Positions 4,701 to 63,984 of a stretch of DNA of 64,000 nucleotides are shown piece by piece (the stretch's first letter is position 1; every line of letters begins with the position of its first letter). A program made the translations under genes and the position numbers. Origin of the DNA: Sphaerodactylus townsendi (taxonomy: Eukaryota); contig NC_059429.1 of the NCBI RefSeq assembly GCF_021028975.2, positions 71,920,001-71,984,000 on the forward strand. Direction: 5' to 3'. A model generated the notes under the pieces. That model was not told the origin of the DNA. It saw only the letters and a program-made list of their open reading frames with translations, and did not search any database.

Positions 4701-7700
4701 AAATTAATCCATGTTGATTCTTCTGCAGTGTTCAGTGCCAGCAGTCATGGTATCCTTCTGGAGAGGCTGGCTGAGTTGGGAGTGGGAGCTACCCTAATTT
4801 GGTGGTTTCACTATTATTTGACCAATCATTTCCAGAAAACATTCCCAGGGACTGCTGCTCAACCCCATGGCATTTATGCTACAGGGTCCAAAAGGATACC
4901 ATCTTATCCTCCATGCTGAATCCTCTAGGAGACATAATCAGGGGTTTTGGAGTAAGGCGCCTCCAACATGCAGATGACACCCAGCTCCTTATCAGATAAG
5001 TTAGGTGGGTCTGCCTGGAGATTTTTTATTTATTTTTGGATTTATATCCCACCCAATCCCCGAAGGGCTCTAGGCAGGTTACAATAAGCTTCGAACATGA
5101 AAATATGGCTCTCAGCTCAAACTGGCTGAACACATCATTAACAACCAGCGACCCATGCTGGGAAATGATACTCTTCTCACAGTCAATGGGAGGCAAACCT
5201 TTTCTTGCCCAAAGACAATCTCCAACTGGGGCCTGCAACATGGGGCTGCCTTTGAAAACAGTTTGGAAATTTCAGCTCATCCAAAATGGCCAGGCTATTG
5301 TTGGGGGTGGGGGGGTGGGGGTACAGGGCCCATATCACCCCTGTACTGAAAGATCTGCGCTGGCTGCACATTTGTTTCAAGGCAAATTTCAAAGTTCTGG
5401 TTCTTATCTTCAGAGTCCTAAATGGCTTGCAGCCAGGGTACCGGAAGGACTGCCTCCTCTTCCCATATTGTCCAGTCTGTCTGTTAAGATCTGCCGTAAA
5501 GGCCCCGTCCTGAGCACGCTACCTTTAGAGGTAATGTGGGTGGCAACCAGAAACAGACCTTTTTAGTAATGGCAGCTTGTTTGTGGAATGCCCTTCCCCT
5601 TGAGACTCACCTGGCATCGGCATTGCTCTCTTTTAGGCCAAAATGTTTCTATTCACTCAGGTTTTTAATGAAGGGGTAACATTTTTAATCTGGAAATTTA
5701 TTTTAAGTTGTCTGAGGTTTGTTTTTATAGTCCATATTTTTATGCTGGGCTTTTCCTGAAGCTGGCTTTTAATTGAAATTTTAATATTTAATTTATTACT
5801 TTTATTAATAGTAAGATTCCTGGAGAGGTGGCATGAAACTTTTCTTAATGCTATGGAAGTTCTCTAGTGGACACCAATGGCTTCTGCCAGTTCAATTTCC
5901 TCTTAAGTACGGTACCTGATATTTTCCCTGGAAACCCAATCTTAAAAGCTGGACCCAGGGCAGGACAAAGCACCACATCCAAATTGAGCCTCTTCCATTC
6001 AGCAATGAATTCATGGCAGTATTCCTAAAACAAGAAAGCACAGGACAAGTATTCTTCAGCACATCAGGCAGCAAGCAGGAATGTTACTAGGACAAGCATC
6101 ATAGTTCCTCTCCCACGACAATGAAGAAAATGAGATTTACCATAGCCAATAGATTGAGCAAGCGCATAAAATAAAGACTCCCCAAGAAGTCACAATCTAG
6201 AAGGCAAAGATCAGTAGTAAGAATGTAATGCAGAGTTTAATAGGGAGGGGGCGCTCCCCCCCCAAACACACACACAAGCAGGGTAGGGGAGAGGTGGAGA
6301 AGTCAAACTCTGATGACAAAAATTCAGAGAGTTTGATGCAGTTCATGTTTTAATTAAATAGAACATAAGAACTAGCCTGCTGGATCAGACCAGAGTCCAT
6401 CTAGTCCAGCTCTCTGAAACTCGCAGTGGCCCACCGGGTGCCTTTGGGAGCTCACATGCAGGAGGTGAAAGCAATGGCCTTCTGCTGCTGCTGCTCCTGA
6501 GCACCTGGTCTGCTAAGGCATTTGCAATCTGAGATCAAGGAGGATCAAGATTGGTAGCCATAGATCGACTTCTCCTCCATAAATCTGTCCAAGCCCTTTT
6601 TAAAGCTATCCAGGTTAGTGGCCATCAACACCTCCTGTGGCAGCATATTCCAAACACCAATCACACATTGCGTGAAGAAGTGTTTCCTTTTATTAGTCCT
6701 AATTCTTCCCCCCAGCATTTTCAATAAATGCCCCCTGGTTCTAGTATTGTGAGAAAGAGAGAAAAATTTCTCTCTGTCAATATTTTCTACCCCGTGCATA
6801 ATTTTATAGACTTCAATTATATCCCCCCTCAGACGTCTCCTCTCCAAACTAAAGAGTCCCAAACGCTGCAGCCTCTCCTCATAAGGAAGGTGCTCCAATC
6901 CTTCAATCATCCTCATTGCCCTTCTCTGCGCTTTTTCTATCTCTTCGATATCCTTTTTGAGATGTGGCAACCAGAACACAGTACTTTTTGAGATGTGGCA
7001 ACCAGAACACAGTACTCCAAGTGTGGTCATACCATGGCTTTATATAAGGGCATGACAATCCTTGCAGTTTTGTTATCAATTCATTTCCTAATTATCCCCA
7101 GCATAGAGTTTGCCTTTTTCACAGCTGCCATGCATTGAGTTGACATTCCCATGGACGCCCAAATCCCTTTCCTGGTCTGTGACTGATGATGCTATGAGCC
7201 AATCACTAGATATCTTCGTATTATACTTTTGAACAAACAGATTAGAGTGTTCTTAGTTGTGCCTGGAACATCTGTTGTCCGATACTGGTGAAGATTATAG
7301 TAGCATTTCCACTATGCTTTACAAAACATTACCTAGCAAAGAAACCATTTTCAAAAATTACCTCAACTTCAGTATGAAGTTTCCAAAGCTGATTGACAGA
7401 CCTGAAATATCAATGAATAGAAAATAATGAAAAGGTCATTACGGCAGAATTACTGCTTTCCTACTTATATTTGTAGTTGGAATGGAGTTACTGAAGCATG
7501 TTCACAAGTCAGCATTTGCAAAGTTGTGGGAACTGAGCTAATGCAGCATCACTTGTTAACTCTCCTGTGTACAAATTCCACCTTTGCCCCCACTGATTCC
7601 CTCTTGCAAATACCACACCCGCATTGGCCTTCCACTGGACCAGGGATCCCAGGTTTCTCTTCAGCCTTCACCAAAAAGAGTTATGATGGGATTCAGGTGC

Positions 7701-10700: not shown

Positions 10701-13700
10701 GTTTCTTTGCCTATAAAAAGAGCCAAATATCAAGTCTTCTTCTCTTATTTACACACACAAACCACATACAGAGTTTAAAGACTTACAAGCTTTCTAGAAA
10801 GGTAGTACCACCATCAGCAAACAATCCCGCTGGCACAAGGGTGCTCATAACATGTTCTATGTTTAAGGGCTTGAAGGGCACCAACTAAAAAAGGAATTTA
10901 AAAAATATCAGAATTTGTGTCATGCTCATGACCTATGAGAACACAGTTGAACTAGCCACAAATAGCTTTATTTATGATTTAAGGAAGCAAAGAAGCCAAG
11001 GCACATGCTAGAGGGGAAAATCACTAAACCTCAGATGATGCAGAACTCTTTTTTCAGATAGGCAGTTATGAAGAACATCTTTTCTTGGTTACAGTGACTG
11101 TCCTGCCCTTCTTTCCATCACTCAAACTCTGCTCCATTCCTGAGAGGAACAGGGAAACGGTTAAAAAGACAAACCATGTGACGCACCGTGTGGCCAGCCT
11201 TCTCCAGGAGGTGCTTGGTTTCCAGAACAGCCCGCTTCATGGAAGGGCTTGGCACTGTAAACGAATCAGTGGTATAGTATCCTATTCGGAGGGGTTGAGA
11301 GCTGGAATACACCTAGAACAATAAAAGATGGGAAAAGAACACTTTGGACATACTTCCCCCCCAACAGCATTAATCACAGTGGGCTCTTGAAAAACAAAAA
11401 CAATAAATCAAAGTCCATGTAACCTTCCAATTACGACAAGTGACATAAAAGTGACTTTAGAATGTATTTTGAGTCACTCAGACACCCTCCCTACAGCAAA
11501 TGCATCTGTGTAAAACTACCTGTAACAATAGCAAATTAATCTTTAAGCACCCTTCTACCAACTTGGCTGGCTGATGGAAAAGAATGTGGATACAGTGTCA
11601 GCGCTTCTCAATTACATTAGCACGAAGGTACTCTTGTCTTCTAGTCTTAGTTGATGCAGCTACACAGACCCATGCATTTGTAGACTCAAAAGCTGACTTG
11701 CATTATAGGAAAAAGAAAGAGATGGACTCTTCTTTAAAAAGGACCATGCATTCCCACTCCTGTACTGCATGAAAGCATCCCCTTTGCCAGATGCCACTAC
11801 GGCAAGGTGGATTACCTGCTCTTTAGAAGTAACATTGAAAGTAACTGCCATGGAGTAAAAGCTCCATGTAAGAAGCCAGTAGGGGTGACCAAGGATCATT
11901 GGAGAGGACTGCTTCATTCAAAGGACACTATACGAAACCACAAGTATACTGCAGATCTGTTCCCCCTCCTGAGTTGCCTCAATAACTCACAGCTGGAAAA
12001 TGATATGATATCTCTGTATTAGCATTCCCCCTTCCCCAGCTGTTGTTCGCAGAGAAATGAGAATGCAAAAATGTCTCATCCGAGGACACACAGGAGGGAA
12101 CTGGGCCAAAGCAGCACTCACAGGTGTAGTTTGTCTGAGCTGGATATCTGTATACAAACTGATGTGTGAAAATAAATCCTCTCAAGACCAGGATCCAAGG
12201 ATGTGCTGCACCCCGCAACTCCAGCTGCTGTTTTAAATAGGCTGCTGGTGTTTTATGGTGCTTACAAGTGATATCACTGGGTGAATGCTCTTTCATTCTC
12301 AGTTCAACAAGTCTTGATGCGGTGGTCATGAGGGGAGGTTAAAAATATAGAGGGCATTTATTCTTGAATATCCCTCACAGAGTCACCCAGTGCAATTTGC
12401 TTTTGGCTATGGAAAGCCTACTACTTTAAGAGGATACTGAGAGAATTCACTAATTGTTCCTTATTTCCATACCTTCCATGAGCAAGAAAAAAGTCTTGTT
12501 TTTGCCCCAAAGCTATACTCCGCCCCCACCCCAGTCTCTCACCTTCTCATTGAAGGGAAGAGGAGCAACTGTGGGGTCCAGCTGGAACATTTGGTCACAC
12601 AGGATGGCTCTTATGCACAGAACAAGACCATCAACATCCCTGGCCATTGGTCCTACTCCTGGACTAGCTGGAGGGAAAAAGGGGAACAATAGAGGCCTTG
12701 ACAGTAGGATCAGTCGCACCACACATGCATTTCTGGGAACAAAGTGAGATGGACATGTTTATCACAATCCCAGAAAACAAATCATTAGCCTGTGTTAAAA
12801 GTATTTCTGTTTTTCTTTTGTTGTATTTTATATTGTTTATTTTAATTATTTTATAATCTGTCTCTTGTAGCCTTTTGTGAAGTTGAAAAATAGAATTTAA
12901 AGCTCAAATGCACCTAAAAAGAATTTACCCCAAAAGAATATGGCCCTAGGTGTAAACAGTTCCCCCTTAAAAAAAAGATTATACCCGAAAGGTTTTTTAT
13001 GACCATACATGACTATAACTTGCATGCAAACGTAAGATGAACTCTTTTTCTGGACTGCACGTGTGAGATAAAACTGTAAGGTAAGCAGGGTAATAACTAA
13101 ACTTATAATGCTCAGGAAGAACTAGCTCCCAATCTTACCCCCCACCCATTATTAATTGTCTTGCTATCCAAGGCTCTTTATACCATCTTCCCTGACTGAA
13201 CTGCTTATTTTAAAATAATTCAATTTAAAGCTTTTGTATACAACAGGATATCCCCATCGATGCCATTCTGTGCTCTTTGGAGAAACAAGGAAGATAAATT
13301 AGACAGATAAACCTAAATGGATTCTGCCTAGAATCCATCAAGGTAAGCAGTTACAGACCAAGAGTGCTACCCTGCCACATTCATCCCTTATCAACCCCAA
13401 CTACATGAAAACAAATGATATCCCTCACCTGATTTTTGCCCACGGATGCTGGGTACAATTCCTCTTTTGCTATGAAAGACCAAAAATAAAGAAACATTTA
13501 GCAAAAATCCTCAGGTTTCCAGGTTTCAACACCAATGCTTAGGGTAAGATTTAAAGGGTCTAACATGACACAGTACCTGATTCTGTTGCCTGTGGCTTTG
13601 AATCCACAAATTCCACAGAAAGCAGCTGGAATGCGAATGCTCCCTCCTACATCTGTGCCAATGCCGAGGATAGAGCCTCCACTTTTAATAAGGGAAGCTT

Positions 13701-16700
13701 CCCCTCCCGAAGAACCACCAGGGGTTTTCGTGTGATCCATAGGATGCACCGTCTGCCCAAAGATCAGATTGCTGCAGTCATAGCTGAAATGGGAGAGTGA
13801 ACACAACCAAAGATCAGTCAGGACTACTTCATGTCCTTTAGACCCCTAGATAGGAGACTTACCTACCCAACCCTACCCATGCTGTGCTGCCAGAGGTCTG
13901 ATCATGTGTCGCCTTCAAACACTATGCACTAATTCTCTTTTTAGCATTAAGGGCTGTGAGGGAACAGAAACGGGAAAAAAGCATGCTATTATTCCTAGAA
14001 AGCCACCCAACACTTTCCAATTACTTCTTGGTTAACCTGGAAGTAGTTAAACACAGGGTGTGCTGGGGTTTGGTCTGAACTCCATTTTCAATGCTCAAAC
14101 AGCCCTGAAACATGTGCAGAGTGCCACTTGCCTCGGTACTGTGTAATTAACCATAATCTCTCTCAAATTAAGGGAAACAACTGCCAGGCCACCTCAGTTT
14201 TCATCATTCCTGGGGAATCTCTTACTTAGAAATTGGAAGCTATTAAGGGCATAGCAGGAATTTTTCCATCCCCCTAAGATGGAGTTACTATTGTAACTTG
14301 CTCTACGCAGGCCTTCCCTTGCACCTGATCCGTAAATTGAAGCTGGTCCAACATGTGGCGGCTTGTCTGCTCACAGGGGGTGCCTTTAGAGATCATATTT
14401 CACTTGTGTTGAGCTGCCTGCATTGGCTCCCAGTTGAATTCTGAATCATTTTCAAGGTGTTGGTGCTAACCTTTAAGGCCTTACGTGGCCTGGGACCCTT
14501 GTGCCTCCAGGACCATCTTACTCCACATGTCCCAGTTTGGCCTCTGCATTTGGCAGAGGCTAATTTGCTGGTGGTCTACGGCCCCTCAATGATGTGGCTG
14601 GCCTCCACCTAGGCCAGGACCTTTATGGCCCTGGCCCCTGCCTGGTGGAACTCTCTTCCTCCAGCTGTCCGAGCCCTGCGAGATTTTGGTGAGTTCCGCA
14701 GGGCCTGTAAGACCAAGTTTTCCACCAGGCTTTTGGAGAGGCCGGCCGCTTATGTGGCTCCTCCCCGCCCCCTTGGTGGTCTTTATAACATCTGTTGGAC
14801 CTACCATTCCCCTCTTGGGAGGGTTTTAGCTGTCGGATGCCATATATTATATATATTGCATACTAGAACACTGTATGCTGTACATTTTAACAGGTTTTAT
14901 CTATTTAATTTTAATAGAGCCTATATATACCTTATTTATAGTTATATTTTGTTTATGTCTTAAACTGTGCTCTATGTGTTATTTAAAATGTTGTACACTG
15001 CCCAGAGCCCTTTGGGNNNNNNNNNNNNNNNNNNNNNNNNNNNNNNNNNNNNNNNNNNNNNNNNNNNNNNNNNNNNNNNNNNNNNNNNNNNNNNNNNNNN
15101 NNNNNNNNNNNNNNNNNNNNNNNNNNNNNNNNNNNNNNNNNNNNNNNNNNNNNNNNNNNNNNNNNNNNNNNNNNNNNNNNNNNNNNNNNNNNNNNNNNNN
15201 GTTAAAAATATTTGTCCTCTGACAAAAATGGAGAAATTGTGTGTGTATATGTGTGAAGTGCCATCAAGTCACGGCCTACTTATAGCGATCCTGTAGAGGA
15301 TGGAGAATTAAAGTGCACGTGCAATTTTAATAAGTGACTAGTGCTCTTATGAAAAGATTTAAAAACATACATGACATAATCAACATTTACAAAGACTCGA
15401 ATACACAACGAAAGAACTGGTGGCAATTTACCAATTAGAAAAAGGTTGCGTTTAAGCACAAATGGGACATCTCCTGACCAGTGGTGGGATTTAGCAAGTT
15501 CGTACCACTTCGGCAGAACTGGTTGTTAAAATGGTGCTTGTAAACAACCAGTTGTTAATGTATTGTCGAAGGCTTTCACGGCCGGAATCACTTGGGTGCT
15601 GTGTGGTTTCCGGGCTGTATGGCCATGTTCTAGCAGCATTCTCTCCTGACGTTTCGCCTGCATCTGTGGCTGGCATCTTCAGAGGATCTGATGTTGGGAA
15701 AGCAAGTGGAGTATATATCTGTTGGAGTGTCCAGGGTGGGTGGGGAAACCTCGTCTGTGAGTAACAAAGGCGGCAACCAAAGGGTGTGCTAAAAGATGAC
15801 AGGGAGATTGCAGAAAAGCTGAATGAATTCTTTGCATCTGTCTTCACCCAAGAGGAGGTGAGGAAAATTCCTGCACCTGAACCAAGCTTCTTAGGAGGCG
15901 AATCCGAGGAACTAACGAAGATAGTGGTAGACAAGGAAGAAGTTCTGGCAGCCATTGATAAACTAAATGCTACCAAATCCCCTGGCCCAGATTGCATTCA
16001 TCCAAGAGTTCTTAAAGAGCTCAAGCATGAAATTGCTGATGTTCTCACTTTAATATGCAACTTATCCTTGAAATCAGGCTCCATCCCTGAAGACTGGAAG
16101 ATGGCCAATGTCACACCAATCTTTAAGAAAGGAACTAGGGGGGACCCAGGAAATTACAGGCCAGTCAGTTTGACATCTGTTCCTGGTAAATTAGTAGAAT
16201 CTGTCATTAAAGATAAAATTATAAAACATGTACAAAAGCAAGACCTGCTGAGAAAGAGTCAGCATGGCTTTTGCAGAGGCAAATCCTGTCTTACAAACTT
16301 ACTAGAGTTCTTTGAGGATGTAAACAGGCATGTGGATAAGGGGGAACCAGTGGACATTGTCTACTTGGATTTCCAAAAGGCTTTTGACAAAGTTCCTCAC
16401 CAGAGACTATTGAGAAAACTCAGCAATGAAGGAATAAGAGGGGAAGTCCTCCTATGGATTAAAAACTGGTTGAGAAACAGGAAGCAAAGAGTGGGTGTAA
16501 ATGAGAAATTCTCACAATGGAGAGATGTAGGGAGTGGTGTCCCCCAAGGATCCGTATTGGGACCAGTGCTCTTTAACCTATTCATAAATGACCTGGAAGT
16601 AGGGGTGGGTAGCGTGGTGGCCAAATTTGCAGATGATACCAAATTATGTAGGGTGGTGAGAACCACAAAGGATTGTGAGGAGCTCCAAGCGGACCTTGAT

Positions 16701-19700
16701 AAATTAGGTGAGTGGGCTAAGAAATGGCAAATGCAGTTCAATGTAGCAAAATGCAAAGTGATGCACATAGGGGCAAAAAATCCAAACTTCACATACACGC
16801 TACAGGGGTCAGTGCTATCAGTCACAGACCAGGAAAGGGATTTGGGCGTCTTAGTTGATAGTTCCATGGGAATGTCAACTCAATGCATGGCAGCTGTGAA
16901 AAAGGCAAACTCTATGATGGGGATAATTAGAAAAGGAATTGATAATAAAACTGCAAAGATTGTCATGCCCTTATATAAAGCCGTGGTGCAACCGCACTTG
17001 GAGTACTGTGTTCAGTTCTGGTTGCCACATCTCAAAAAGGATATTGTAGAAAAAGTGCAGAGAAGGGCAACGAGGATGATTGAGGGACTGGAGCACCTTC
17101 CTTATGAGGAAAGGCTGCAGCGTTTGGGACTCTTTAGTTTGGAGAGGAGACGTCTGAGGGGGGATATGATTGAAGTCTATAAAATTATGCATGGGGTAGA
17201 AAATGTTGACAGAGAGAAATTTTTCTCTCTTTCTCACAATACTAGAACCAGGGGGCATTCATTGAAAATGCTGGGGGGAAGAATTAGAACTAATAAAAGG
17301 AAACACTTCTTCACGCAACGTGTGATTGGTGTTTGGAATATGCTGCCACAGGAGGTGGTGATGGCCACTAACCTGGATAGCTTTAAAAGGGGCTTGAACA
17401 GATTTATGGAGGAGAAGTCGATTTATGGCTACCAATCTTGATCCTCTTGATCTGAGATTGCAAATGCCTTAACAATCCAGGTGCTCGGGAGCAACAGCCG
17501 CAGAAGGCCATTGCTTTCACATCCTACATGTGAACTCCCAAAGGCACCTGGTGGGCCACTGCGAGTAGCAGAGAGCTGGACTAGATGGACTCTGGTCTGA
17601 TCCAGCTGGCTTGTTCTTATGTTCTTAACCAGGTCAATAGTTGAGGGCATCTGAATAGAAGTATGAGTAACAATGAAGACTATAGCCTGGGAGTAACCCT
17701 GTAGATAGCAAGGTCACTGGTGGGAGCATCTGAATAGAAGTATCCTGGCCTTTGTTTCTTTTGTCTATGGTCATCCTGTGTTTGTGTGGAGCTGGTTTGA
17801 CACAGTCTTGACCCTAGTATTTTTCAACACTGGCAGCCAAGTTCTGTTCATTTTCATAGTTTCTTCCTTCCTGTTAAAATTGTCCATGTGCTTATGGATT
17901 TCAATTGCTTCTCTGTGTAGTCTGACGTAGTGGCTTTCAGAGTGGTCCAGAATTTCTGTTTTTTCAAATAATATTCTATGTCCAGGTTGGTTTATCATGT
18001 GTTCTGCTATTGCTGATTTTTCTGGCTGAAATAGTCTGCAGTGCCTTTCGTGTTCTTTGATACGTGTCTGTGCGCTGCGTTTGGTGGTTCCTATGTAGAC
18101 TTGTCCACAGCTGCATGGTATGCGATAGACTCCTGCAGTAGCTAAAGGATCCCTCTTATCCTTTGCTGAACGTAGCATCTGTTGAATTTTCCTAGTGGGT
18201 CTGTAGATTGTTTGTAGGTTGTGCTTCTTCATCAGTTTTCCTATGCGATCAGTGGTTCCCTTGATGTATGGTAAGAACACCTTCCCTCTAGATGGCTCTT
18301 TATCTTCATGTGGCTTGTTCTTGGTCTTGCAGCCCTTCTGATTTCTGTATTAGAGTAACCATTAGCCTGTAGAGCCCTGTTTAGGTGATTCAATTCATCT
18401 TGTAGGAGGTGAGGTTCACAGATTCTGTTTGCGCGATGTACCAAAGTTTTTATGGTGCTCCTTTTTTGCCCTGGATGGTGATTGGAGTTTTTGTGTAGAT
18501 ATCTGTCTGTGTGAGTAGGTTTTCTGTATACTGTGTGTCCCAATTGCTGGTTTGGTTTGCGGATGACTAAAACATCTAAAAATGGCAGTTTTCCTTCATT
18601 TTCTTTCTCCATAGTAAATTGGATGTTTGGGTGGATCTTGTTGATATGGTCCAGGAACGTGTTTAGTTCTTCTTCTCCGTGGCTCCATATGGTGAATGTG
18701 TCATCCACATAACGGAACCATATGGTGGGCTTTTTTGGTGCTGTTTTCAGGGCTTGTTTCTCAAAATGTTCCATATAAAAATTAGCTATTACAGGGCTAA
18801 GAGGGCTACCCATGGCTACCCCATCTTTCTGTTCATAGTATTCATTATCCCACTGGAAGTAGCTGGTAGTGAGACAATGTTGAAACAGGGCTGTGATGTC
18901 TTTTGGGAATTTCTGGTTAATGAGTGTCATGGTGTCTGCTATGGGGACCTTGGTGAATAGGGACACCACATCAAAACTGATCAGTTTGTCATTGGGGTTG
19001 AGTTTGAGTTTGCTGATTTTTTCAATGAAGTGAGTTGAGTCCTTAATGTAATGTGTAGTAAGTCCAATATGGATTTGCAGTTGTGTGGCCAGAAACTGTG
19101 CCAAATCATATGTAGGAGATCCAATTGCACTCACAATAGGTCTGAGTGGAGTGGAGTCCTTGTGGATTTTTGGGAGTCCATAGAGTCTAGGAGGGTGAGC
19201 TTCAGATTTGCAGAGACGTTTGCGAATGATTGGATCAATTGAGGAGTTTTTAATCAAGGTGTTGGTTTTCCTGGTGATTTTGTTGGTTGGGTCCTGTTTT
19301 AACTTTTTGTATGTTGTGGGGTCCAAAAGTTGTCTGATTTTTTCTTTGTATTGGTCTGTTTCCATGATAACCATGGCATTACCTTTAACTGCTGGTAGAA
19401 TAATGATTTCTGAATCAGAATTGAGATCTTTGATGGCTTTTCTTTCTTTCCTTGTTATGTTACTGGAGGGAAGTTTTGCCTTTCTCAGAATCCTTGCTGT
19501 TTCCCCTCTTACTTTGCTTCTTCCTCAGGGAGATGATAAATCGCTGATTCCACATTAGCGATGATGTTTTCCACTGGAATTCTGGTGGTGGTAACAGCAA
19601 AATTGCCTCCTTTTGCTAAGATGGATACTTCAGCCTCAGAGAGTTGCCTCTCAGAATTCCAGTGGAAAACATCATCGCATAAACCAACATAAACCAACCT

Positions 19701-22700
19701 GGACATAGAATATTATTTGAAAAAACAGAAATTCTGGACCACTCTGAAAGCCACTACGTCAGACTACACAGAGAAGCAATTGAAATCCATAAGCACATGG
19801 ACAATTTTAACAGGAAGGAAGAAACTATGAAAATGAACAGAACTTGGCTGCCAGTGTTGAAAAATACTAGGGTCAAGACTGTGCCAAACCAGCTCCACAC
19901 AAACACAGGATGACCATAGACAAAAGAAACAAAGGCCAGGATACTTCTATTCAGATGCTCCCACCAGTGACCTTGCTATCTACAGTGACCTTGCTATCTC
20001 CCAGGCTATAGTCTTCATTGTTACTCATACTTCTATTCAGATGCCCTCAACTATTGACCTGGTTGCCGCCTTTGTTACTCACAGACAAGGTTTCCCCACC
20101 CACCCTGGACACTCCAACAGATATATACTCCACTTGCTTTCCCAACATCAGATCCTCTGAAGATGCCAGCCACAGATGCAGGCGAAACGTCAGGAGAGAA
20201 TGCTGCTAGAACACGGCCATACAGCCCGGAAACCACACAGCACCCAACCAGTTGTTAAATTATTTGAATCCCACTACCGGAACCGGTTGTAAATTATTTG
20301 AATCCCACCACTGCTCCCAACCTTTAAGGGCAATTATTCCCTTTGAAGAGCATAAGAGTATAAGTACCACACACGTGATTAATAGGTTGAAAAAAATCTC
20401 ATTGTTGTAAGACTTAGATAGCTAATAATAGCTAATAATAATAGATAGTTGGCTTAGATAATCGTAAATAGTCTGCTGTAAAAATTGCTTTCATGGGTCC
20501 AACCAGTTTGAGAATCACGGTTTGAGAATTATGTTTTTGTGACAACTTCTTCAGTTGTGAACTGTAACTCCTGCTTACAACTTACAAGGTATAATTTCTG
20601 TTTTACTTCCGCACTACCTCCTTTGCAGCCTGTTGCTGAATTAACAGTGCTGAATTAACAGAGCAAGTTTCATGTTTAGGAAAGAAGGGCTAAACTAAAC
20701 CAATCTCATGATGCCTAAAGATAGCTAATGAAGACAAATGTCCACACATGTAGTATAGCAAAAAAAGTTACAGGCTTACTTCAGCAAAGACTGAGGAACG
20801 TTAGTTTTGACAAATGGAATTGCTCCCTGTTGTTTTAACACCTGAACTACCACAGCATCTGCTGTTGCTGGTTTATGGAGACGCTTCACCAAACCCAGTG
20901 TGGAGTCATGGCCCTGGAGAGTGGCATAAAGAGAAATTGAACTTTCATAAAAAAACATTTCTTGCTGGGAAAATATATTCCAAACTATCAGCATATGCAA
21001 GTTTCCTCAAGAGGGCAAACAGTGACTCCCCTGAGACATTTCCTATCCAGACAATGATATGGGAGGAGTCTTAAATCCTGTTTCCAAGTGCCCTGTGATC
21101 CTAATCTGAATTGGGCCTATGCAAATCTGGGAACAAAGTTTCAAGCACAAGTCTGATTGACAGGAGCTGTGGAAAAGTCAGGGACATTGTTATGTATTAA
21201 GTAGCTCATGGCACAATGCCAGTTCTACCCTCCCCCCATCATTCCTACATTATTAAAAGCAGATTTCCCTCAGGGATTTTTATGAAAACTTGTTAATATA
21301 TAGCTTACATTGTTCAAATTTCTTTGGTATAGTCCAGACAAGGTTACTTTAAAAGTGAGAGAAAAGAATTGAAGCTGGAGAAAATAATACTTCTCACCTA
21401 TTTACCTATCACTTTTTTTACCCATCCTTCTTCCAGAGTTATAATTAGCATATGCTACAACCAGTTACCAATTTGTAATTGGTTGACTGACTGAACTCAA
21501 AGGGTGCTCATTAATAGCCCATCTTCATCCTGGAGAGAAGTGACTAGTGGGGTGCCACAGGGTTCTGTCCTGGGCTCAGTGCTATTCAATATTTTTATCA
21601 ATGACTTGGATGATGGAATAGAGGGCATGCTAATCCAATTGACAGATAACACCAAATTAGGAAGGGTAGCTAATACCCCCGAGTTCAGAGTCAGAATTGA
21701 AAGTGAACTGGACAGATTAGAGAGCTGGGCCAAAACAAAGAAAATTAATTTCAACAGAGATAAATGTAAGATACTACACTTAGGCAGAAAAAAATGAAAT
21801 GCACAGATATAGGATGGGTGACACCTTGCTTGACAATACTATATCATGCGAAAGGGATCTGGGAGTCTTAGTAGCCCACAAACTGAACGTGAGTCAGCAG
21901 TAAGATGCGGCAACCAAGAAAGCCAATGCGATTTTGGGCAGTATCAATAGGAGAATAGTGTCAAGATCAAGGGATGTAATTGTACCTCTCAATTCAGCAT
22001 TGGTTAGACCTCACCTGGAATATTGTGTACAGTTCTGGGCACTGCAATTCAAGAAGGATATTGACAAGCTGGAATGGGTCCAGAGGAGGGCAACCAAAAT
22101 GGTAAAAGGTGTGGAATCCATGCCCTACAAGGAGAGACTTAGGGAGCTAGGTATGTTTAGTTTGGTGAAGAGAAGTTTAAGAGGTGACATGATAGCCATA
22201 TTTAGATATTTGAAGGGATGTCATGTTGGTAAAGGAGCAAGCTTGTTTTCTGCTGCTCCAGAGACTAGGACCATGATTAATGGGTTCAAGGTGAAGGAAA
22301 AGAGATTCCACATAAACATCCAGAAAAACTTCCTGACGGTAAGGGCTGTTTGACAGTGCAATGCACTACTTCAGGGTGTGGTGGAGTCTCCTTCTTTGGA
22401 GGTTTTTAAAGACAGGCTCAATGGCCATCTGTCAGGTGTGCTTTGATAGTGTGCTCCTGCATTGGTCGGCTTGACTTGATGGCCCTTGGGGTCTCTTCCA
22501 ACTCTATGATTCTATGTAGATTTCCCCCTTTTTATTGTATCCTCACAACCACTCTATGAGGCAGCTTAGGCTAAGAATTGGAATTCTATCACCGCTGACT
22601 TGTGATCTAAGAATAATATCTGACAAGAATTATTTAAAAACTACCAGGAAAGATGCATACCCAACTACTGGTTTGCTACAGGAATATCCTGTACTTCATT

Positions 22701-25226
22701 CTATGAGGAACTTTAATGTACCTTGCAGTCAATGGAATCCTTTATGCTGACGGGAACCCCATAGAGCAAGCCTTTCTTCCCCTGGCTTTTCAGATGCAGA
22801 AGCTGGGATTCACTATTCTCCAGATAATCAGTCACACAGTTGATCTCTCTAGTCACATCCAGGGCCTAGGAAAAGCAGGAAAAGGCAAAATTCAGTTCAG
22901 AGCCATAATTTCCACCATCACAACACACACACGAACAGAATGAGGTTTGCTTTGCAAAAGCAGACAGTTTTCACTCCACAAATAAGCTTTGGACTATTCC
23001 AAATAATAAATCCCATGATTCTGAAAACTGGTCTTAAGGAGTACCCAGTCCAAAATCTGTAAAGTGTGTTTTGCTATGAACAGAAAAATAAGTCATCCGT
23101 TTGCAAGGAACAGTCTCCAGAATTTAGGGTATATGATTTGGGAAAATTCAACCTTTATTTTGGAATGTAGACCTGTTTAAATATCATCTGCATTTTTAGT
23201 TGGAGAACAAGGAACCATCAACTGCAACCAGGGAACTGGAAACCACCTGCAGTTTTATCAGTCTAAATCAGATTTGGTGATAAAGAAACTAGTTCTCACC
23301 TTGTCCATGTAAGTGCATAAGACAGTCTCAGGTGAGAGTGAGCCATCCCTGAGATTTCCACACAACTGAGGCAGGGTGAAAGCCAGTATCGGTGCTGGTT
23401 GGTGGCTGGGATTCTGAAGAAGAAATTTGCAATGGTTTACAGTGGTTGCTCCCACACTTTCCCACACAGAATTAAATAGAGAGATGTTTCAACAGAGCAG
23501 GAAGAGAACACCATGGTAGCTGATCTCCTCATGCAAACAGATGTGATTCAATGGAAAGAGCACTTGTTCTTGCTCCAAATGACACTTGCATTGTAAAACA
23601 TATGATTTAAACGGGGCTGTAAATCTTGTATTTATGAGATATGGTATTTAGAACTGGACACAGAAGCAACATGAGTAGAGTGAAGAGTGTTTTAAGTGGT
23701 GGCTATCAGCCTGATCTTTGACCTGGAAGATCCTCAGATCCTTCCTTGGAAATGAGTTAACCAGATAGTCTTTGCCAGCTCAAACAGTCAGTTCATTATC
23801 TGTAAAATGCCAATAGGAGAAACTTTTTTTGGAAGGATTACTGGGTAGTCAAATGAGATGGGGATTGCTAAATGTTTCATACACCAATAATAACCTATCT
23901 GAATAACGGATTCTCTGAAGTGCCAGTTTCACTCTGCAACAGCACTTTTCTACTTTTTGTATATTGCTGACCTTCTGAAAGCATCAATACCTCTAATGTT
24001 TTAATCTGCAGCTAAGCCACATTTGGAACAGTGATATGAATAAGCCCTGCGATTTTCTGTGTAGACCTCAAGCCCCTCACTCATATCAACTCCTGTGCTC
24101 TGTCCAAAAGTGAAGAATGGTTCATCCACGAAAGTCCACAGTGTCAGTCCTAAAACTTTATTATTTGTTGCTTTACTAAAAATATGTATATCTCATCCTT
24201 CCTCATGGGTCAGTCAAGAGTACTGTCACGCAAAGAAGGCAGTCTCCACTTTAGTTGAGAGGGAATTAGATGGAGGCAGAGAGTGACATGGGGTAACTGG
24301 GATCTATAACCTATGTATACCAGGATAGTTTTGGGTGGAATCTCTCAAATGAGCAGGCAGTTGTAAAATTGAGATTTGTTTTATTACATCATCATCATGA
24401 AAAACATGAGAAGATCACTAAATACCACAATTTGAAAATCAAGATTCAGCGACTATGGCACGAACTAGCTGAGGTGATCCCAGGGGTACTCAGCACCCTG
24501 GGTGCCATTCCGAAAACACTATGGTGGCACTTGAAATGTCTTCAAATCGACAAAATCAACCTCAGTCACATTCGAAAGGCAGCCCTGCTGGAATCCACAT
24601 GAATGCTACACCGTTACAACATCCTAGGCCTCTGGGTGAGGATAGAATTGGAATTAAACGTTAATAACAGGGGCAGCATAAGCAACATTTATTTGTTGGA
24701 AAACCACAGTATGTAAAGAATTAACCTACTGATTATAGATTGTAGGACAACATCCTATAAGGATAACTTTCAGTAGTTGCAGTGTCTCCCATCAATGCAA
24801 TGATAAAAGCACTCCTGTCGAAATCCTCCTAAGTTTGCAAGGAGCCCTCCCCAGACTTGGATGCGTCCACTTTCATCACAGAATCTAGCTGCATTCGTCC
24901 GAGGGAAAAAGGATTCAGATAACTCCGATCCACTGGCTGTGGTAAAGAGCAAACGCGTCTGGCTCTGCGCCTTGAGGGAGGTCTGGAATTCCTCAGGCAA
25001 TGATCCGTAACATCTTCACAGAAAATAGCCCTCTCCACCCGCACCCGCACGTTACCTGCTGCTTGAAGTTTCCAGCAGCCTTTTCCATTTGTTGCAGCGC
25101 GCGATCCCGCCTCCACCTCGCCTCCTGCATCTTCCTTTGGCCGGTCCTCCTCCTGCGCCAATTCAGGAGCAGGATCGTGACAGCACAGCAGCATAAAAAA
25201 GCGGAGACCAGGCTGGGATTCATCAT
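1783..25226 (-). CDS. FAAH: Fatty-acid amide hydrolase 1 (FAAH / VDHAP-like amidase), 15 coding exons, 574 aa
   Basis: Exons: 25056-25226, 23300-23413, 22722-22865, 20780-20913, 13577-13783, 13429-13469, 12543-12667, 11187-11312, 10787-10884, 10113-10212, 8155-8195, 7362-7401, 5916-6024, 2007-2152, 1783-1911. All GT-AG, phases consistent, 1725 nt total. Amidase signature: GVPVSIKD (catalytic Lys), TPGGSSGGE and GTDVGGSIRIPAAFCG (two catalytic Ser), C-terminal GLPVAVQCVALPWQDELCLRFMKEVE. Position next to NSUN4 on the same strand matches FAAH synteny. Orthology versus VDHAP-like paralogs is not proven. Confidence 0.93.
2700..3460 (-). mobile_element. L2-clade LINE 3' fragment (interrupted by a hAT MITE)
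   Basis: Translation HIHPVLCQLHWLQVEYQVRSQVFILMYKALNSLGPVYLQDHL is typical of the L2 ORF2 C-terminus. Boundaries approximate. Confidence 0.7.
2793..3082. mobile_element. hAT-type MITE
   Basis: 16-bp TIRs CAGGGGTAGGGAACCT / AGGTTCCCTACCCCTG; perfect 8-bp TSD CACTAGAC (2785-2792, 3083-3090). Confidence 0.92.
3896..4074 (-). mobile_element. SPIN/URR1-like hAT MITE
   Basis: TIRs CAGTGGTCCTCAACCT / AGGTTGAGAACCGCTG; TSD AGTCAGAG/AGTTAGAG. The terminal segments (CCTAATGCCGCG..TTTAATACAGTTCCTCATGTTG and GGGTCGTTCGACCCCCAAAGGGGTC) match my recollection of SPIN non-autonomous (URR1) elements. Confidence 0.85.
4500..5670 (+). mobile_element. Decayed L2-like LINE (RT and 3' portion)
   Basis: Broken RT motifs (VDSSAVF..SHGILLERL, LQHADDTQL) and the L2 C-terminal motif HITPVLKDLRWLHICFKANFKVLVLIFRVLNGLQP. 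Boundaries approximate. Confidence 0.7.
6361..7187 (-). mobile_element. CR1 LINE 3' fragment, same family as 15780-17626
   Basis: ORF2 C-terminus (YEERLQRLGLFSLERRRLRGD) and CR1 3' end ...GTTCTTATGTTC. Contains an internal 31-bp tandem duplication at ~6953-7014. Confidence 0.95.
14280..14750 (+). mobile_element. L2-clade LINE 3' fragment
   Basis: L2 signature sequence (TATTGTAAC..CTCTACGCAGGCCTTCCCTTG; CTGCATTGGCTCCCAGTTGAATT; 'LAPAWWNSLP...FRRACKT'). Confidence 0.75.
15017..15200. other. Assembly gap (N run)
   Basis: Run of N. Confidence 1.
15644..15686 (-). ncRNA. Minimal type-I hammerhead ribozyme (Penelope-associated)
   Basis: Minus strand reads UCCU-CUGAAGA-U-GCCAGCCACAGAUGCAGGC-GAAA-CG-UC-AGGA: core CUGANGA / GAAA / UH, stem I UCCU:AGGA, stem II GCC:GGC, palindromic ACGU stem III. 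Confidence 0.8.
15780..17626 (+). mobile_element. Young 5'-truncated CR1 LINE inserted in the Penelope 3' UTR
   Basis: Uninterrupted 551-codon ORF2 part (GNYRPVSLTS, YLDFQKAFD, GVPQGSVLGP, KFADD); 3' end TTCTTATGTTCTT; AACCA target duplication (15775-15779, 17627-17631). Confidence 0.97.
20153..20195 (+). ncRNA. Minimal type-I hammerhead ribozyme (copy in the inverted pseudo-LTR)
   Basis: TCCT CTGAAGA T GCCAGCCACAGATGCAGGC GAAA CG TC AGGA; predicted cleavage after C20191. Identical to the reverse complement of 15644-15686. Confidence 0.8.
21470..22516 (+). mobile_element. Older CR1 LINE 3' fragment (different subfamily)
   Basis: SGVPQGSVLG and LVRPHLEYCVQFW motifs with stops and frameshifts; 3' end CTCTTCCAACTCTATGATTCTATG. 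Confidence 0.93.
24392..24650 (+). mobile_element. R4/Dong-like non-LTR retrotransposon 3' fragment
   Basis: EKITKYHNLKIKIQRLWH..AEVIPGVLSTLGAIPK..IRKAALLEST resembles the restriction-like endonuclease C-terminus of R4/Dong elements. Confidence 0.7.
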
Positions 25227-25229
25227 CAC

Positions 25230-25470
25230 GCTCTCGGGTAGCCAGGCTGCAATCTCACCTTCTTCAGCCGACGCCGCGAATAGAGCAGCTTCTGTCCTCA
25301 GCAAGGGCCGGTACAGGCACCCAGATGAACCGCCCCTGCAAATCCGGATTGGATTTTCAATACATTTGTGCGCCGGAAGTTGAGCAATTGCGTCTCTCTG
25401 AACCTCTGTTACCAGTTGAAGTAGTTTGATCGAATGCTGAAAACTTCACCAGAATTAGATGCACGCTCGC
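25230..25470 (-). promoter_or_regulatory. CpG-rich promoter / 5' UTR of FAAH
   Basis: CpG-dense (24890-25470) with a GC box CCGCCC (~25331), CCAAT as ATTGG (~25348) and an ETS site CCGGAAGT (25373-25380). Confidence 0.6.
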
Positions 25471-29030: not shown

Positions 29031-36921
<7,891 letters not shown>

Positions 36922-38323: not shown

Positions 38324-41300
38324 TTATTTCAACTTGCTGAAGAGTTTGTGAGCCACCTGGAAAACAAGATGAAGAAAACATTAAATAAAATTGTATTCAG
38401 CAGTTTGTTTAGCAAATGTATCTCTCTTCTATTTTTACGGAATCATCTTAGGGACCAACAACATTTTCCAGGATACAAGTTTTAATGAATAACAAAGTGA
38501 GCTTTAACCCAGAAAAACTTGTACTGTGAAAAAATTCATTGGTTCCAAAGGTGCTAATGGACTTTTTTTTTTTACAACAGACTAATATACCGGTAGCTAC
38601 AGACTAATGTAGCTACCCATTAGAAACTATCTGCTATCTTTGGGGTCCAATGGCATTCTTGCAACCACACTCTAACCCACTTATACTTTAGAAATACTGT
38701 TACACACATTTGTATGTTAAGTTGATAATGTGAGAGGGTCTTACTCCTTGGAGATCTTCAGGAGGCACTTCAAGATCTGCTTGTTTGCCAGAGCTATTGA
38801 GGGGATTTGAATAGCAGGCATTTTTTAAAGGATTTGGGACTTGTTATTTCATCTTTGGTTTTGACTGGGGATGATTTAACTATTTTGTAATCCACCTTGA
38901 GCCAAGAAGAAAGGCAGGATATAAGATGCAATGGCAAAACCAGTTTCTGAACAAGTCCAGTGCTTGAAAGTCTCCCCCTTCCCCTGAACATTTGAAGCTA
39001 ATTGCACTTCTACACTCACCCTCAAAGCTAGTATAGCAAACCAGATTTGAAGCTAATTTGCAATCCTGGTTGAAACAGATAATGCAAACCATTGCTGGCC
39101 ATTTCAGGTGTAACAGCAAAATTACTATATTGGAAGTCACTAATAAATTCCAAAAGAAATGAAAAGGCAATGTGGAAGCACAAGGGTCATTCACGTAGTG
39201 CTGAACTATCGATTGGCTTTATACTATTTGTTTAGAAAAACGGTGTTTAGAAAAACTACGGCTGGTGAGTTTGACAAATACAGAATTAATCTTACATACT
39301 CAATAATTCTTCCTAACTCACAGCATATCAACATTATATTCTTCATGAAAACATGAGTATCCAGAATCTATAACTGCTATTTATAAGTTGTGTCTTAACA
39401 ATGAAAAATAGAGTTCCACTTGAACCACAAAGAAGCCTCAGATTAATCACAACTATTACTAGTCACTGTTCCAGCAATCTTACACAGTGGTCTCTAGCGT
39501 GCAGGAAGTCAAAGAGCTCCTCTGTACACTGCTCTTCTGTATGAGATCTTGATGACACTCGAGCATCACACTGATCTAGAATTTCCCGAAACTTCACACA
39601 TTTTTCTATTTGCTCACATTGCTCCCTGATTGTAGTTAATGGGTCCTGTAAGAAAAACAAATGTATAATAGGAAAAACAGTTAATGGAAGTGGGTTGCTT
39701 CTTACTGCAGATTCAAATATATCCCAACATGATTAAAATTAATGGACTCTAGATAGTCATTAAAATCTTTCCCGTTGTTCCAAAGTTATCCATTATCACA
39801 TTTTGAGGTTATTACCACAAGCAGGATAGCTTAAGAGTATTTTCTCAGAACAAAAATGAAGAGACCTTAGATTTGAAAATAACCCTGTGAATCATTAAGA
39901 TCTTTCTTGGGATGCGGCACTTACATGCAGTGGTAGGATTCAAATAATTTAACAACTGGTTCCGGTGATGGGAATTCAAATAATTTAACAACTAATTGTT
40001 TACAAGCACCATTTTAACAACTGGTTCTGCCGAAGTGGTGCGAACCTGCTGAATCGCACCACTGTTTACATGTTACTTGCAAGTCAAGCATGATCCACCT
40101 CTGTCTAAGCCGTTAAAATAATATTTTGCAAATGAATAAAGTTGCCCACAGAACCAAGCTGTGGTGTTCTGGATGTATTTCTAAAATGCATTAACCAAAA
40201 AAAAGTGTATAAAGCTACAACAGTACAGCCCTCATGACTCCTTGGTATTTTAGGGCACAGTTGATCAAAATTGATCCCAGTTTATCCTAATCACTCCCCC
40301 CCTCCAATACATACCCACATTCTTGTGGGTTTTCAAAATCCAAATGAGACATTGTATGGAACAACAGGATTTTAAAGATGCCAGTTGTAAACCTAAGAAC
40401 TATTTGTCCAACATTATTTTAATTAAAAGCCACATACCACAAGCTCTTCTTCCTCCTCCTCCTCCTCCTCCTAGACAAAGAGACACAGAGATCAATATGA
40501 ACTCAAAAATTCTCAGACATATGCATAAAGTGGGTACATTAGGTTATAGCAAAATTAACCACAATTTGTTATTTTATTTTTCCAACAACATAGTAGATAA
40601 CTATTCCCCAACATGTAGTTTTGTATTAGTAAGATAGTTTATGATTTATTCCTAAATTATTGTTTATGATTAATAATAATAATAATAATCTAAAGTGACT
40701 TTCAAATTGATAAATAGTACGTTGGGTGATGAAGGTGATAAGTGGTCCATCAGGCCATTAACAGGGCAATCCTAAACACTTATTCCAGTCTAAGCCCTCT
40801 GAAATCAATGGGATCAAACTGGGGTAACTGTGTTTAGGATTGCACTATAAATTATTGACTGTTGATGGTATGTCATCTTCTTAATACCAGTACCCCAAAA
40901 CTATCTCACTTGAATCTTGCAATAGTTTTAAGAACAGGATGAGTGAAAAAGAGCCATGAAAGAATAAGACTGCGATAGAGACTCTGGAAAAATGGAGAAA
41001 CAGACAACACAGATCTTAATTTGAGAGCATACAACTAGCATAACGAAATATGGATAAACCAACGGAAAGCATTAAATGGAAAGTATGTGAAAACCAACTT
41101 AACATGGGATCGGATAACCAGATTTAGCAAGCATGCAGCTAGGGACACTTGATAATTGCAAAGATGGAAAATAAAAAGGAATGGGAGAAAGGACAATGAG
41201 CATCCACTACCCATGCTCAGGATTTCTAGCAAGAGAATTAGGACTATCTGTGCCCCATGAGGACTTGGGAGAGATCTCCTTTCCACTCTCTGTCCTACTT

Positions 41301-45100: not shown

Positions 45101-48100
45101 GGTTTGAGGTAAATTACATGAAGAAGCTAGATTTCCTATCTTTGTGGCTGATTTAATTTTTGATCTCTCCCAGTTGTGGTAATTTTTTGTACCATTTTCA
45201 CTGGTAATTGCTGTCCTGGATAGAGAGATGGTACTGAATTATGTGCACTTTCTTTCCATTCTAAGTGCGAAAACTGTTATTCTGACGGGCAGTTAAAAAA
45301 AATTGTCCCTCCCGATCAAGAGCAACATTGCTCATTATTTTTCGTTGTACTGAGTGTCCCCAGTCAAGGAATTCAGTGAACGCCTGTAGCCCATCCTTGA
45401 ATACCTTTTTTATTTAGTTGTATGCGCACATGCTTGGGAGAATGTTCCATTGGACTAAGAGAAACTTACTTATGAAGATAAATAATACCTGGGCACCAGG
45501 GCACTGAAACTGTTTATGTTTTATTTCTCTGCAGAGCATCAAGTGCTGGAGGAAGAAGTTCCTTGAATGTTTCTTCTCAAATGTGCTGCGTGGGACCTTG
45601 GATGTATCTTCAGACCAGCGCCTGAAAGATCCTTGCTTTTCGCCTTTGCTGTATACTTCACAGCATGTTACCCAACTTACTATCTACAACATGCTTGAAG
45701 GAGTAGCAAAGCTGATGGCCAAAGAAAACCAGGGGGTTCTAGAAAACTTGGTTGTCTCACTCAGGTCCCTGACATTCTGTCACTTGCTCTCTTCCAGTCA
45801 GTCTACTAGACAACAGCTGAGTTTGCTTCTTCATTACCTAATTCATCATGGGGCTGTGAGCCACATATCAATGAACTCTTGGCCTAATCCTGACTCCTCA
45901 CTTTTAGTTCTTATTCTGAAAATGAGTGCTGGGATTTGGCACCCAGGAAAAGCACTTGTAAACCAAGCAGGCCTTTGCCATCTGTGCAGGGAGACACCTG
46001 TTGATCAGAGCCAAAAGTTAGACCAAGAGCATGAACCTCATTTGGGCTCAAACCAACTATTGCAGAGATTAACAGCTGGCCAACATAGTGACAAAGATCT
46101 GAGAAATGAGAAACTGTCACCCAGCATGCCACCAGGCTTTGAAAATGCTGTGGAGCTGGCCAGAGCCGGTAGTGAAACTCTGAATGTCTTAGTGGACTAT
46201 CACTTGAGTAGCAATCCTTCACGAAGCAAGATGCAGCACAGAACAAGTTCAGAGAGTTATGCTGGAAAAGAATCTGTTAGACTTCCTCCAGCAAAACTAT
46301 CTGAAGATGGCTCTCTTTTAGATGAACATCAAAAGAGGGGAAAGGGTGCAATAAAACGGAAGTTCAGCTGCCTTCAGAAGACCAGCAAAGGCACAAGAGA
46401 CTCGGAAGATCTTTATGACTTTGTTTTTTCTGTTTCAAGGGAAGAAGAGGAGAAAACATTGCTCAGCAAAAGAACAAACTTGAAGGAGGGAAGGACTTTT
46501 GTTAACTATTCTTCTTGCCCCACAGAAGCCAGCACTACTGATTTGGTATACACAGATAGACCTGTTGGGACCACTTCCATGAAAGCACCAAGCCATTTCC
46601 GAAGCGTGTCCACTCTGGAAATTGTTTCCATTCGTCTAAACCAGAATACGTGCCAGATGCTGGGAAATCTGCTCAGCTCTTGGGTGTCTTTAGAAAAGCT
46701 TGTTCTGTCTTTGAATGGTGAGTAATAAACCACACATTTCATATCAGGCTTGATCGCAGTTTGTTTTACTCTAAAGGAAGTTTTAAAAGCATTAGCTGGC
46801 ATCTGAGCTTTAGATAGACAAAATGTACTGTATATACTCATGTATAAGTTGAGTTTTTCAGCACATTTTTTTGTGCTGAAAAAGCCCCCCTCGACTTATA
46901 CGCGAGTCAGCTGTATTTTAAAAAATATTTTAGGGTTTTTACTTTGTCGGCCGCCAGGGGGTGCAGTTTTTAGGCTAGTGGCACCAAAATTTCAGAATAT
47001 CATCAGGTGACACTCCTGATGATACTACCCAAGTTTGATAAAGTTTGGTTCAAGGGGTCCAAAGTTATGGACCCCCAAAGGGGGTGCCCCATTCCCCATT
47101 GTTTCCAATGGGAGCTAATAGTAGATGGGGCTACATTTTGAGGGTCCATAACTTTGGACCTCCTGAACCAAACTTCACCAAACCTGGGTGGTATCATCAG
47201 GATGGTCTCCTAAAGATACTCTGAAATGTTGGTACTGCTAACGTAAACATTCCTCCCCTGACCAAAAATCCAGTTTTGAAGGATTTTAACTCTTGTGTTT
47301 TAGCTTGGTTGCTGGTTGAGCTAAGGTTTTTGTACTTTTAAAGTTATTGTTGAGACCATATTGTTTTTGTTTACTCCCTTTTCCACTTACAGAGCTAGTT
47401 TACCGTTTTTCTTTGGAATAAATATTCAAAAACATTTAACCTACTGATGCCTCAATTAATGTAATTATATTGGTATCTATTTTTATTTTTGAAATTTACC
47501 AGTAGCTGCTGCATTTCCCACCCTTGACTTATACGCGAGTCAATAAGTTTTCCCAGTTTTTTGTGGTAAAATTAGGTGCCTTGACTTATATGCGGGTCGA
47601 CTTATACACGAGTATATACAGTATATCCCAAATAGGGTGCTTGTAAACAAGATTGTTTGTAAAAAAAAATTGCAAGCACCCTATTTGGAATAGAAATTTT
47701 TCTTGGAGAGGCAGCAGACATTTACACCTTCTAAAATAAATCATGGGAAACCTTATTGAATCCATACTTCCAAATGCAATCCTAAAATCATATATGATCA
47801 TTGAAGTTATAAGCAAATAATTTACTGTGTTTGTACTTTCCAAGTTTACTTCTTTAAAATGTTATTCCAGAATTAGGTCCCAATATCTTCAGCATCCTTT
47901 CTGGGCTCCGGGCTCTTTCTCGCCAGAGTGACTATCATCTCCGTGTGGTGCACATCAGTGACATGCTCTCCCATGTGCCCTGCATGAATCTTGTTTGCTC
48001 TATTTTGAGTGCCGTTCCATTGCTTCAGGTGCTTTTGGTCAGTTTTGATCTCAAAACTCTGGTGGATTGCAGCAGGCCAGAAGAGAACCCAGGCTCATCA

Positions 48101-54597: not shown

Positions 54598-62919
<8,322 letters not shown>

Positions 62920-63775: not shown

Positions 63776-63984
63776 TATTGTCGAAGGCTTTCACGGCCAG
63801 AATCACTGGGGTGCTGTGTGGTTTCCAGGCTGTATGGCCATGTTCTAGCAGCATTCTCTCCTGACATTTCGCCTGCATCTGTTGCTGGCATCCTCTGAAG
63901 ATGCCAGGCACACATGCAGGCAAAACGTCAGGAAAGAATGCTGCTAGAACACAGCCATACAGCCCAGAAAACACACAGCACCCC
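63776..63984. mobile_element. Palindromic mini-Penelope (two inverted 3' ends) with mutated hammerhead
   Basis: Left arm matches 15561-15677 and right arm matches 20152-20245; flanked by the direct repeat CATATTCCATATT (63767-63779, 63984-63996). Confidence 0.88.

Follow-up and report, generated by a model that had tools for sequence, protein, structure and literature searches.

The window analysed here, a 64,000-nt stretch of the Sphaerodactylus townsendi genome (NC_059429.1, positions 71,920,001 to 71,984,000), contains a FAAH-like gene on its minus strand, and intron 4 of this gene (20779-13784, 6,996 nt) holds two copies of a minimal hammerhead ribozyme motif in opposite orientation. Both motifs belong to the ends of one insertion of a Penelope-like element (PLE), spanning 15559-20245 and flanked by a 13-bp target duplication (Table 1). 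We consider it highly probable that they are native hammerheads within the pseudo-long terminal repeats (pseudo-LTRs) of a single dead, tail-out inverted insertion of the Poseidon type, likely produced by reverse transcription primed from both nicked strands of the target, and the sense motif is predicted to be inactive in the FAAH-like pre-mRNA.

The motif pair and the insertion in intron 4

The 43-nt motif (UCCU-CUGAAGA-U-GCC(n13)GGC-GAAA-CG-UC-AGGA) has a 4-bp stem I, a GUC triplet and a stem III reduced to the palindrome ACGU, and the sequence confirmed the statement of the initial annotation that the two copies are identical and their core nucleotides intact. The 43-mer has the layout of a minimal hammerhead ribozyme (min-HHR), with the conserved core, stems I and II and an extra U preceding stem II. 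Its attribution to the minimal type-I hammerheads of PLEs also held, the motif lying in a pseudo-LTR, where the min-HHR definition places it, with a reverse transcriptase (RT) and GIY-YIG body between the ends. For the isolated 43-mer a non-hammerhead fold is predicted to be favoured (-9.9 versus -7.6 kcal/mol for the constrained hammerhead fold), the hammerhead conformation accounts for ~0.5% of the predicted ensemble, and a folding z of -0.45 does not separate the motif from shuffled sequences. In an Rfam search of the window, none of the 9 matches with E<=10 was a hammerhead.

The boundaries of the insertion are given by the short repeat that received it, uninterrupted copies of which (C5:71885331-71885467 and 71884610-71884742) join the left half directly to 20246-20313; a further copy of this repeat lies in the window at 39927-40064, and RNA reads of a related species contain the repeat in abundance. 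The antisense partner described in the initial annotation is present, while its extent proved greater than 43 nt: the outer arms pair over 188 nt at 99% and the inner arms over 376 columns at 97%. Over ~555 nt, 4 substitutions and a single 7-nt indel separate the two arms, and the flanks are preserved as well as the motif in this arm-versus-arm comparison. The insertion shows the features of an endonuclease-bearing PLE, namely an RT followed by a C-terminal GIY-YIG domain (in a broken frame), pseudo-LTRs, an inverted 5'-truncated copy and a one-sided tail; no extra Zn-finger-like motif was seen by eye in the linker that joins RT to the endonuclease. A Pfam scan of the endonuclease piece returned no family, and a PDB search with the RT piece gave weak retron and group II intron matches only. 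The LINE (long interspersed nuclear element) within the insertion, which we take to be of the CR1 family, arrived later and split the left pseudo-LTR, since the right arm is continuous across that site.

Table 1. Features of intron 4 and the adjacent exons (window positions; ORF, open reading frame of the element; UTR, untranslated region; MITE, miniature inverted-repeat transposable element)
Feature	Position	Strand	Evidence or remark
FAAH-like exon 5 (207 nt)	13577..13783	-	50/70 residues identical to rodent-type FAAH1 chain, E 4e-29 (hand count)
Host repeat, left half (short dispersed, MITE-like by our own label)	15477..15558	.	received the insertion
Left target-site duplication, 13 bp	15546..15558	.	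= 20246-20258; single in empty copies; last 2 bases shared with element end
Left-arm tail (ORF +86 to +118), 33 nt	15559..15591	-	missing from right arm
Left pseudo-LTR, outer part	15592..15779	-	99% complementary to 20060-20247 (188 nt)
Minimal hammerhead motif	15644..15686	-	sense in host pre-mRNA; element ATG 15676; predicted cut between 15648 and 15647
5'-truncated LINE (CR1-type)	15780..17626	+	5-bp duplication 15775-15779 / 17627-17631; 558-aa frame, RVT_1 E 1.3e-33
Main Penelope copy body, 5'-truncated, frameshifted (three frames)	17632..19651	-	RVT_1 E 1.1e-12; GIY-YIG clusters 0.97
GIY-YIG endonuclease piece	17771..18349	-	motif in translation; GIY-YIG clusters score 0.97
Reverse transcriptase piece	18241..19524	-	RVT_1 E 1.1e-12
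N-terminal piece	19509..19651	-	main Penelope copy
Inversion junction	19652..19688	+	27-bp inverted copy of 19558-19584, then 10-bp duplication
Inverted 5'-truncated arm, ~0.56 kb	19689..20245	+	endonuclease end, 3' UTR, pseudo-LTR; stops at ORF +83/85; tail-less
Predicted pseudo-LTR core promoter	20122..20154	+	TATA-like box at -28; initiator-like site, A at 20150 (ORF -13)
Minimal hammerhead motif	20153..20195	+	antisense in host pre-mRNA; element ATG 20163; predicted cut after 20191
Host repeat, right half, including right target-site duplication (20246-20258)	20246..20313	.	empty repeat copies
FAAH-like exon 4 (134 nt)	20780..20913	-	gene model, paralogue matches

The same motif is spread through the genome, with 8,991 exact copies of the 43-mer (4,479 + 4,512; reversed control 0) and 15,161 matches to an exact 29-mer downstream of it, an abundance beyond chance that nevertheless does not make this locus special. 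The layout of insertions was sampled at the loci of the first 100 of the 15,161 29-mer matches, all within the first 7.6 Mb of contig C1, together with loci from the 43-mer search. The 29-mer matches correspond to 79 insertions, of which 52 are tail-out inverted, 25 single and 2 tandem; some of the groups take in older neighbouring arms, and the partner of a long single may lie outside the retrieved flank. Among 40 cases with two arms, 34 combine an arm that has the tail with one that lacks it, and the two arms reach the 5' edge of the motif in 29 sampled groups.

We propose the following course for the insertion. The element protein would have nicked both target strands 13 bp apart, one cDNA starting at ORF +118 and running ~2.1 kb and the other starting at +83/85 and running ~0.56 kb, after which the two cDNAs would have been joined via short template switches. 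In the family at large the pseudo-LTR promoter would start the RNA three bases ahead of the hammerhead, so that most copies would be arms of 100-130 nt, and a few percent of the templates would have cleaved themselves to give arms that start at +30.

Both motifs fall inside intron 4 because of the positions of exons 4 and 5, one in sense and one in antisense to the minus-strand gene, and the exon positions agree on this point with the initial annotation. Its identification of the host as FAAH stood in so far as the gene is FAAH-like with an intact frame, but at least four amidase paralogues, this gene among them, stand in tandem on the minus strand (C5:71.83-71.95 Mb), with exon 1 of the next paralogue at 719-519 of the window. 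The 15-exon model, assembled from paralogue matches and human exon sizes, comprises 574 codons with zero internal stops and GT-AG at every intron, and contains the catalytic Lys and the two Ser motifs of the amidase signature family. The gene adjoins an RsmB/NSUN-type methyltransferase exon, as human FAAH adjoins NSUN4. The name FAAH-like is used here, and orthology to FAAH, as opposed to a tandem paralogue, is putative. Exons of the RsmB/NSUN-type methyltransferase and of a helicase C-terminal domain were seen at 29034-29321 (-) and 56884-57105 (-), and the gene order around the window resembles the human order, RAD54L-LRRC41-NSUN4-FAAH. An open frame of 405 aa lies at 45508-46722 (+), for which Pfam gave no match.

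Further repeats occur in the window. A second, shorter tail-out palindrome of the same Poseidon-type family lies at 63776-63983 with both motifs damaged, and at 36002-36107 stands the old, degraded end of a related pseudo-LTR, present singly, 72% identical and with a broken core. Elsewhere in the genome, Poseidon arms that abut long G- or C-rich simple repeats (L011, L143, L146, L150 and L162) may reflect junction slippage or an assembly artefact. Introns 4 and 12 of the FAAH-like gene carry CR1 3' ends in opposite orientation (16817-17625 (+) and 6360-7187 (-); 96% over 400 nt and, overall, 89% over 842 columns), a pair that flanks exons 5-12 (778 nt) and, judged by its arrangement, could favour a back-spliced circle. 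An 81-bp near-perfect fold-back at 50943-51104 belongs to a dispersed MITE-like repeat and has a weak mir-5408 score (51.8 bits versus a cut-off of 90).

Where copies of the family begin

The 5' ends of copies were examined in a sample of 124 arms (identity at least 88%), with positions given relative to the element ATG. Arms start most often at -17 to -10 (51 of 124), 31 of them at -13 or -12, and the TATA-like box and the initiator-like A at -13, labels that we assign by consensus, would fit a transcription start there. Five single copies that start at -12/-13 have no upstream exon in common, and a spliced 5' leader was therefore discarded as the source of the -12 peak.

Starts form a second peak at +30, the first base behind the predicted cut. 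In a pattern search that demanded three non-element bases upstream of the tested start, +30 gave 132 matches, compared with 50 at +26, 43 at +34 (about half of them small deletions) and 51 at +38. Twenty inspected +30 loci comprised 15 clean 5' ends, 3 joins via the stem I complement and 2 internal variants. Over +26 to +34, a hand tally of the 100 matches listed out of 319 gave 3, 3, 16, 7, 40, 5, 10, 11 and 4 starts (one internal variant dropped), and a script counted, in the first 30 loci, 9 starts at +30, 6 at +29 and 5 each at +28 and +33. The partner arm also ends at +30 in 13 of the 40 rows. Of the 124 arms in the unbiased sample, only 2 begin at +30 and another 2 at +29; cleaved templates would accordingly be a small minority.

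We somewhat favour in vivo cleavage by the ribozyme as the cause of this peak, a view that comes from the distribution of genomic ends. A serious competitor, which we hold to be less probable, is that the excess reflects a reverse-transcriptase stop or a joining bias at stem I. Joins by microhomology to the stem I complement make up 8 of the 40 rows at +30, as a joining bias would have it, but when all such rows are removed 32 of 91 starts persist there (P ~1e-9 versus uniform, a value affected by the fact that the paired arms of an insertion do not supply independent rows) and the neighbouring positions +29 and +31 hold 7 and 5. The upstream control (+14 to +22, 100 of 180 rows listed) also peaks, with 44 apparent starts at +22; CpG decay accounts for 13 of these, a single microhomology join that recurs for 11 and small indels for 6, which leaves 14 clean starts. 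Joining biases therefore do create local peaks. Against such a bias stand the downstream control (+38 to +46, 100 of 272 rows listed), which is flat at 8-15 per base, the single copies with a clean flanking duplication that start at +30 (L126), and the cases in which both arms end at this base.

An older sister Penelope family (L001, L037, L038, L064, L078, L110, L130 and L163) keeps 39-43 nt of the motif nearly unchanged between two flanks that are both different, and it shows no +30 peak: over +26 to +34 the 100 rows listed out of 275 divide into 4, 16, 11, 12, 9, 11, 20, 7 and 10. A near-identical motif that leaves no peak would suit a bias that has nothing to do with cleavage, yet the sister motif has mostly a GUU triplet, an argument made post hoc, and GUU is a weaker cleavage triplet. 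The outer pair of stem I is also mismatched in the sister motif, which occurs in the related-species RNA reads as well. Since the motif overlaps the first codons of the element, its conservation is not purely at the RNA level. The failure to find anole RNA-sequencing reads at the cut site, stated in the accessible sections of PMC11167929, likewise sides with the bias.

If the +30 peak is the work of the ribozyme, cutting in the germline would be recorded in the genome. Young Poseidon arms begin right after GUC in a few percent of cases, in a third of these with both arms there, as would be expected of two RNAs on a dimer of the element protein that cut together as a double hammerhead before being copied; the main 5' end would mark the transcription start, the ribozyme would cap the mRNA, and the cut, by removing the start codon, could switch the message into a template. 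We judge this fuller scheme to be about evenly balanced between right and wrong. We found no published report of such a genomic cleavage footprint, subscription papers and bioRxiv supplements lying outside the search. The footprint bears on the open question of whether minimal Penelope hammerheads cut in vivo, and a count of the genomic starts of copies, broken down by subfamily and cleavage triplet, offers a test of in vivo cutting in any many-copy genome.

The motif pair in the FAAH-like pre-mRNA

The FAAH-like transcription unit contains one sense and one antisense motif, the sense copy having no partner on the same strand. The 188-nt arm duplex is predicted at a net -314 kcal/mol, and the duplexes of 188 and ~370 bp at -409 and -701 kcal/mol. 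According to these models the antisense arm, transcribed first, would pair with the sense arm over 188 nt, and the intron would end up in a long duplex instead of cutting itself. The sense motif is thus probably silent in the pre-mRNA, because it lacks a dimer partner in cis and faces the 188-nt antisense arm, and the antisense brake proposed in the initial annotation, which is predicted to be always on because its arm is transcribed first, is probably a by-product of the mode of insertion.

Several points weigh against this interpretation. The arms are 4.3 kb apart, and a time window before pairing may exist; a partner strand or the element protein could act in trans. The layout sample is non-random, coming from one 7.6-Mb end of C1, and a snap-back of one cDNA could also produce short palindromes. 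To these is added the missing +30 peak of the sister family.

The insertion might still affect the gene by accident, with the long double-stranded RNA causing A-to-I editing or slower splicing of intron 4 independently of ribozyme chemistry. Intronic inverted repeats do undergo editing and the predicted duplexes end 1.8 kb from the exon 5 acceptor, but the hairpin encloses no exon or splice site, and we think such an effect unlikely.

That the sense hammerhead is a working self-cleavage site regulated by the antisense arm, as the initial annotation had proposed for FAAH, is very improbable: the core is intact and identical in both copies, the host gene is intact with canonical splice sites and the motif of the family may cleave in vivo, but the identity of the copies is explained by the youth of the insertion (evident from the few differences between the arms and from the 8,991 identical copies), the cis dimer partner is absent and the duplex predicted, the tail-out inverted layout is the majority form of the family, and the exon-5 regions of the four paralogues gave no hint that they share an element here. 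The proposed device thus gives way to a normal product of insertion, young, dead and seated within another repeat. A domesticated regulatory ribozyme of the host gene, which would be single-copy and conserved beyond its flanks, was also rejected in view of the copy number and of flanks kept equally well. Thousands of introns of the genome probably hold the same inverted pair, and the locus should therefore not be taken for a case of FAAH regulation.

Among sequencing runs, none with RNA from S. townsendi itself was listed as containing the stretch. RNA reads of the related species were aligned to 19690-25400. The pseudo-LTR bin reaches a depth of ~800-1,250 in both orientations, with reads from all copies in that genome, while exon bins have a depth of at most 1.3 and unique intron bins 0. 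Read starts and ends are not piled at 20150 or 20191; fragmented libraries hide such ends, and the missing pile-up is therefore evidence neither way. Splicing was rejected as the cause of a 60-nt skip at 20060-20121, the same skip occurring in DNA contigs.

Comparison with known Penelope-like elements and hammerheads

Conserved intronic hammerheads of amniotes, such as that in the RECK intron, are single-copy and have a full stem III. The motif in intron 4 resembles them in lying in a vertebrate intron in sense to the gene, but it is the end of a young transposon of many thousand copies and has an antisense twin. A non-LTR retrozyme, described in the accessible part of 10.64898/2026.07.22.740005 as tandem head-to-tail short non-coding repeats, was rejected, as the insertion is inverted and contains RT and endonuclease sequence.

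Among metazoan PLEs, the min-HHRs described in the available portion of PMC4209133 share with our motif the type I fold, the short stem I, the extra base before stem II, a G-C first pair of stem II, a palindromic stem III and an occurrence in thousands per genome. That portion also notes motif pairs on opposite strands, names reptiles among the hosts, and gives single minimal motifs as uncleaved in vitro and in vivo evidence as none. The opposite-strand pairs listed there are 100-700 bp apart, whereas the pair in intron 4 is separated by 4.5 kb because of a longer copy and the CR1.

A close relative is Poseidon_Ac of the green anole, to whose RNA (Fig. S1 of PMC11167929, which we consulted in part) 77 of 91 nt (85%) are identical by hand count; placement in the Poseidon clade, and not in Neptune, is putative. 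In what is accessible of that paper, Poseidon_Ac likewise has the ATG at the start of stem II, a cut 26 nt past the start codon, a tail bounded by ends at about +83/85 and +118, and an RT followed by GIY-YIG, while the copy in intron 4 is truncated, frameshifted and split by CR1. The Poseidon_Ac protein is reported there to cut and extend both target strands in vitro, starting at two internal sites, and the left-arm tail at our locus agrees with a start of reverse transcription at +111-118. The same sections describe cleavage of the motif only with the element protein, and mention no peak of genomic 5' ends, either at +30 or at -12/-13.

Finally, the inverted-pLTR PLEs of PMC8557442, as presented in the part of that paper available to us, likewise have an inverted 5'-truncated copy beside the 5' end, which results in flanking inverted repeats, and a one-sided tail of 30-40 bp, with which the left-arm tail agrees. 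The copy in intron 4 differs from that structure in having no upstream tandem pseudo-LTR, and therefore no promoter before its frame. The locus is a further member of this already known type of insertion.

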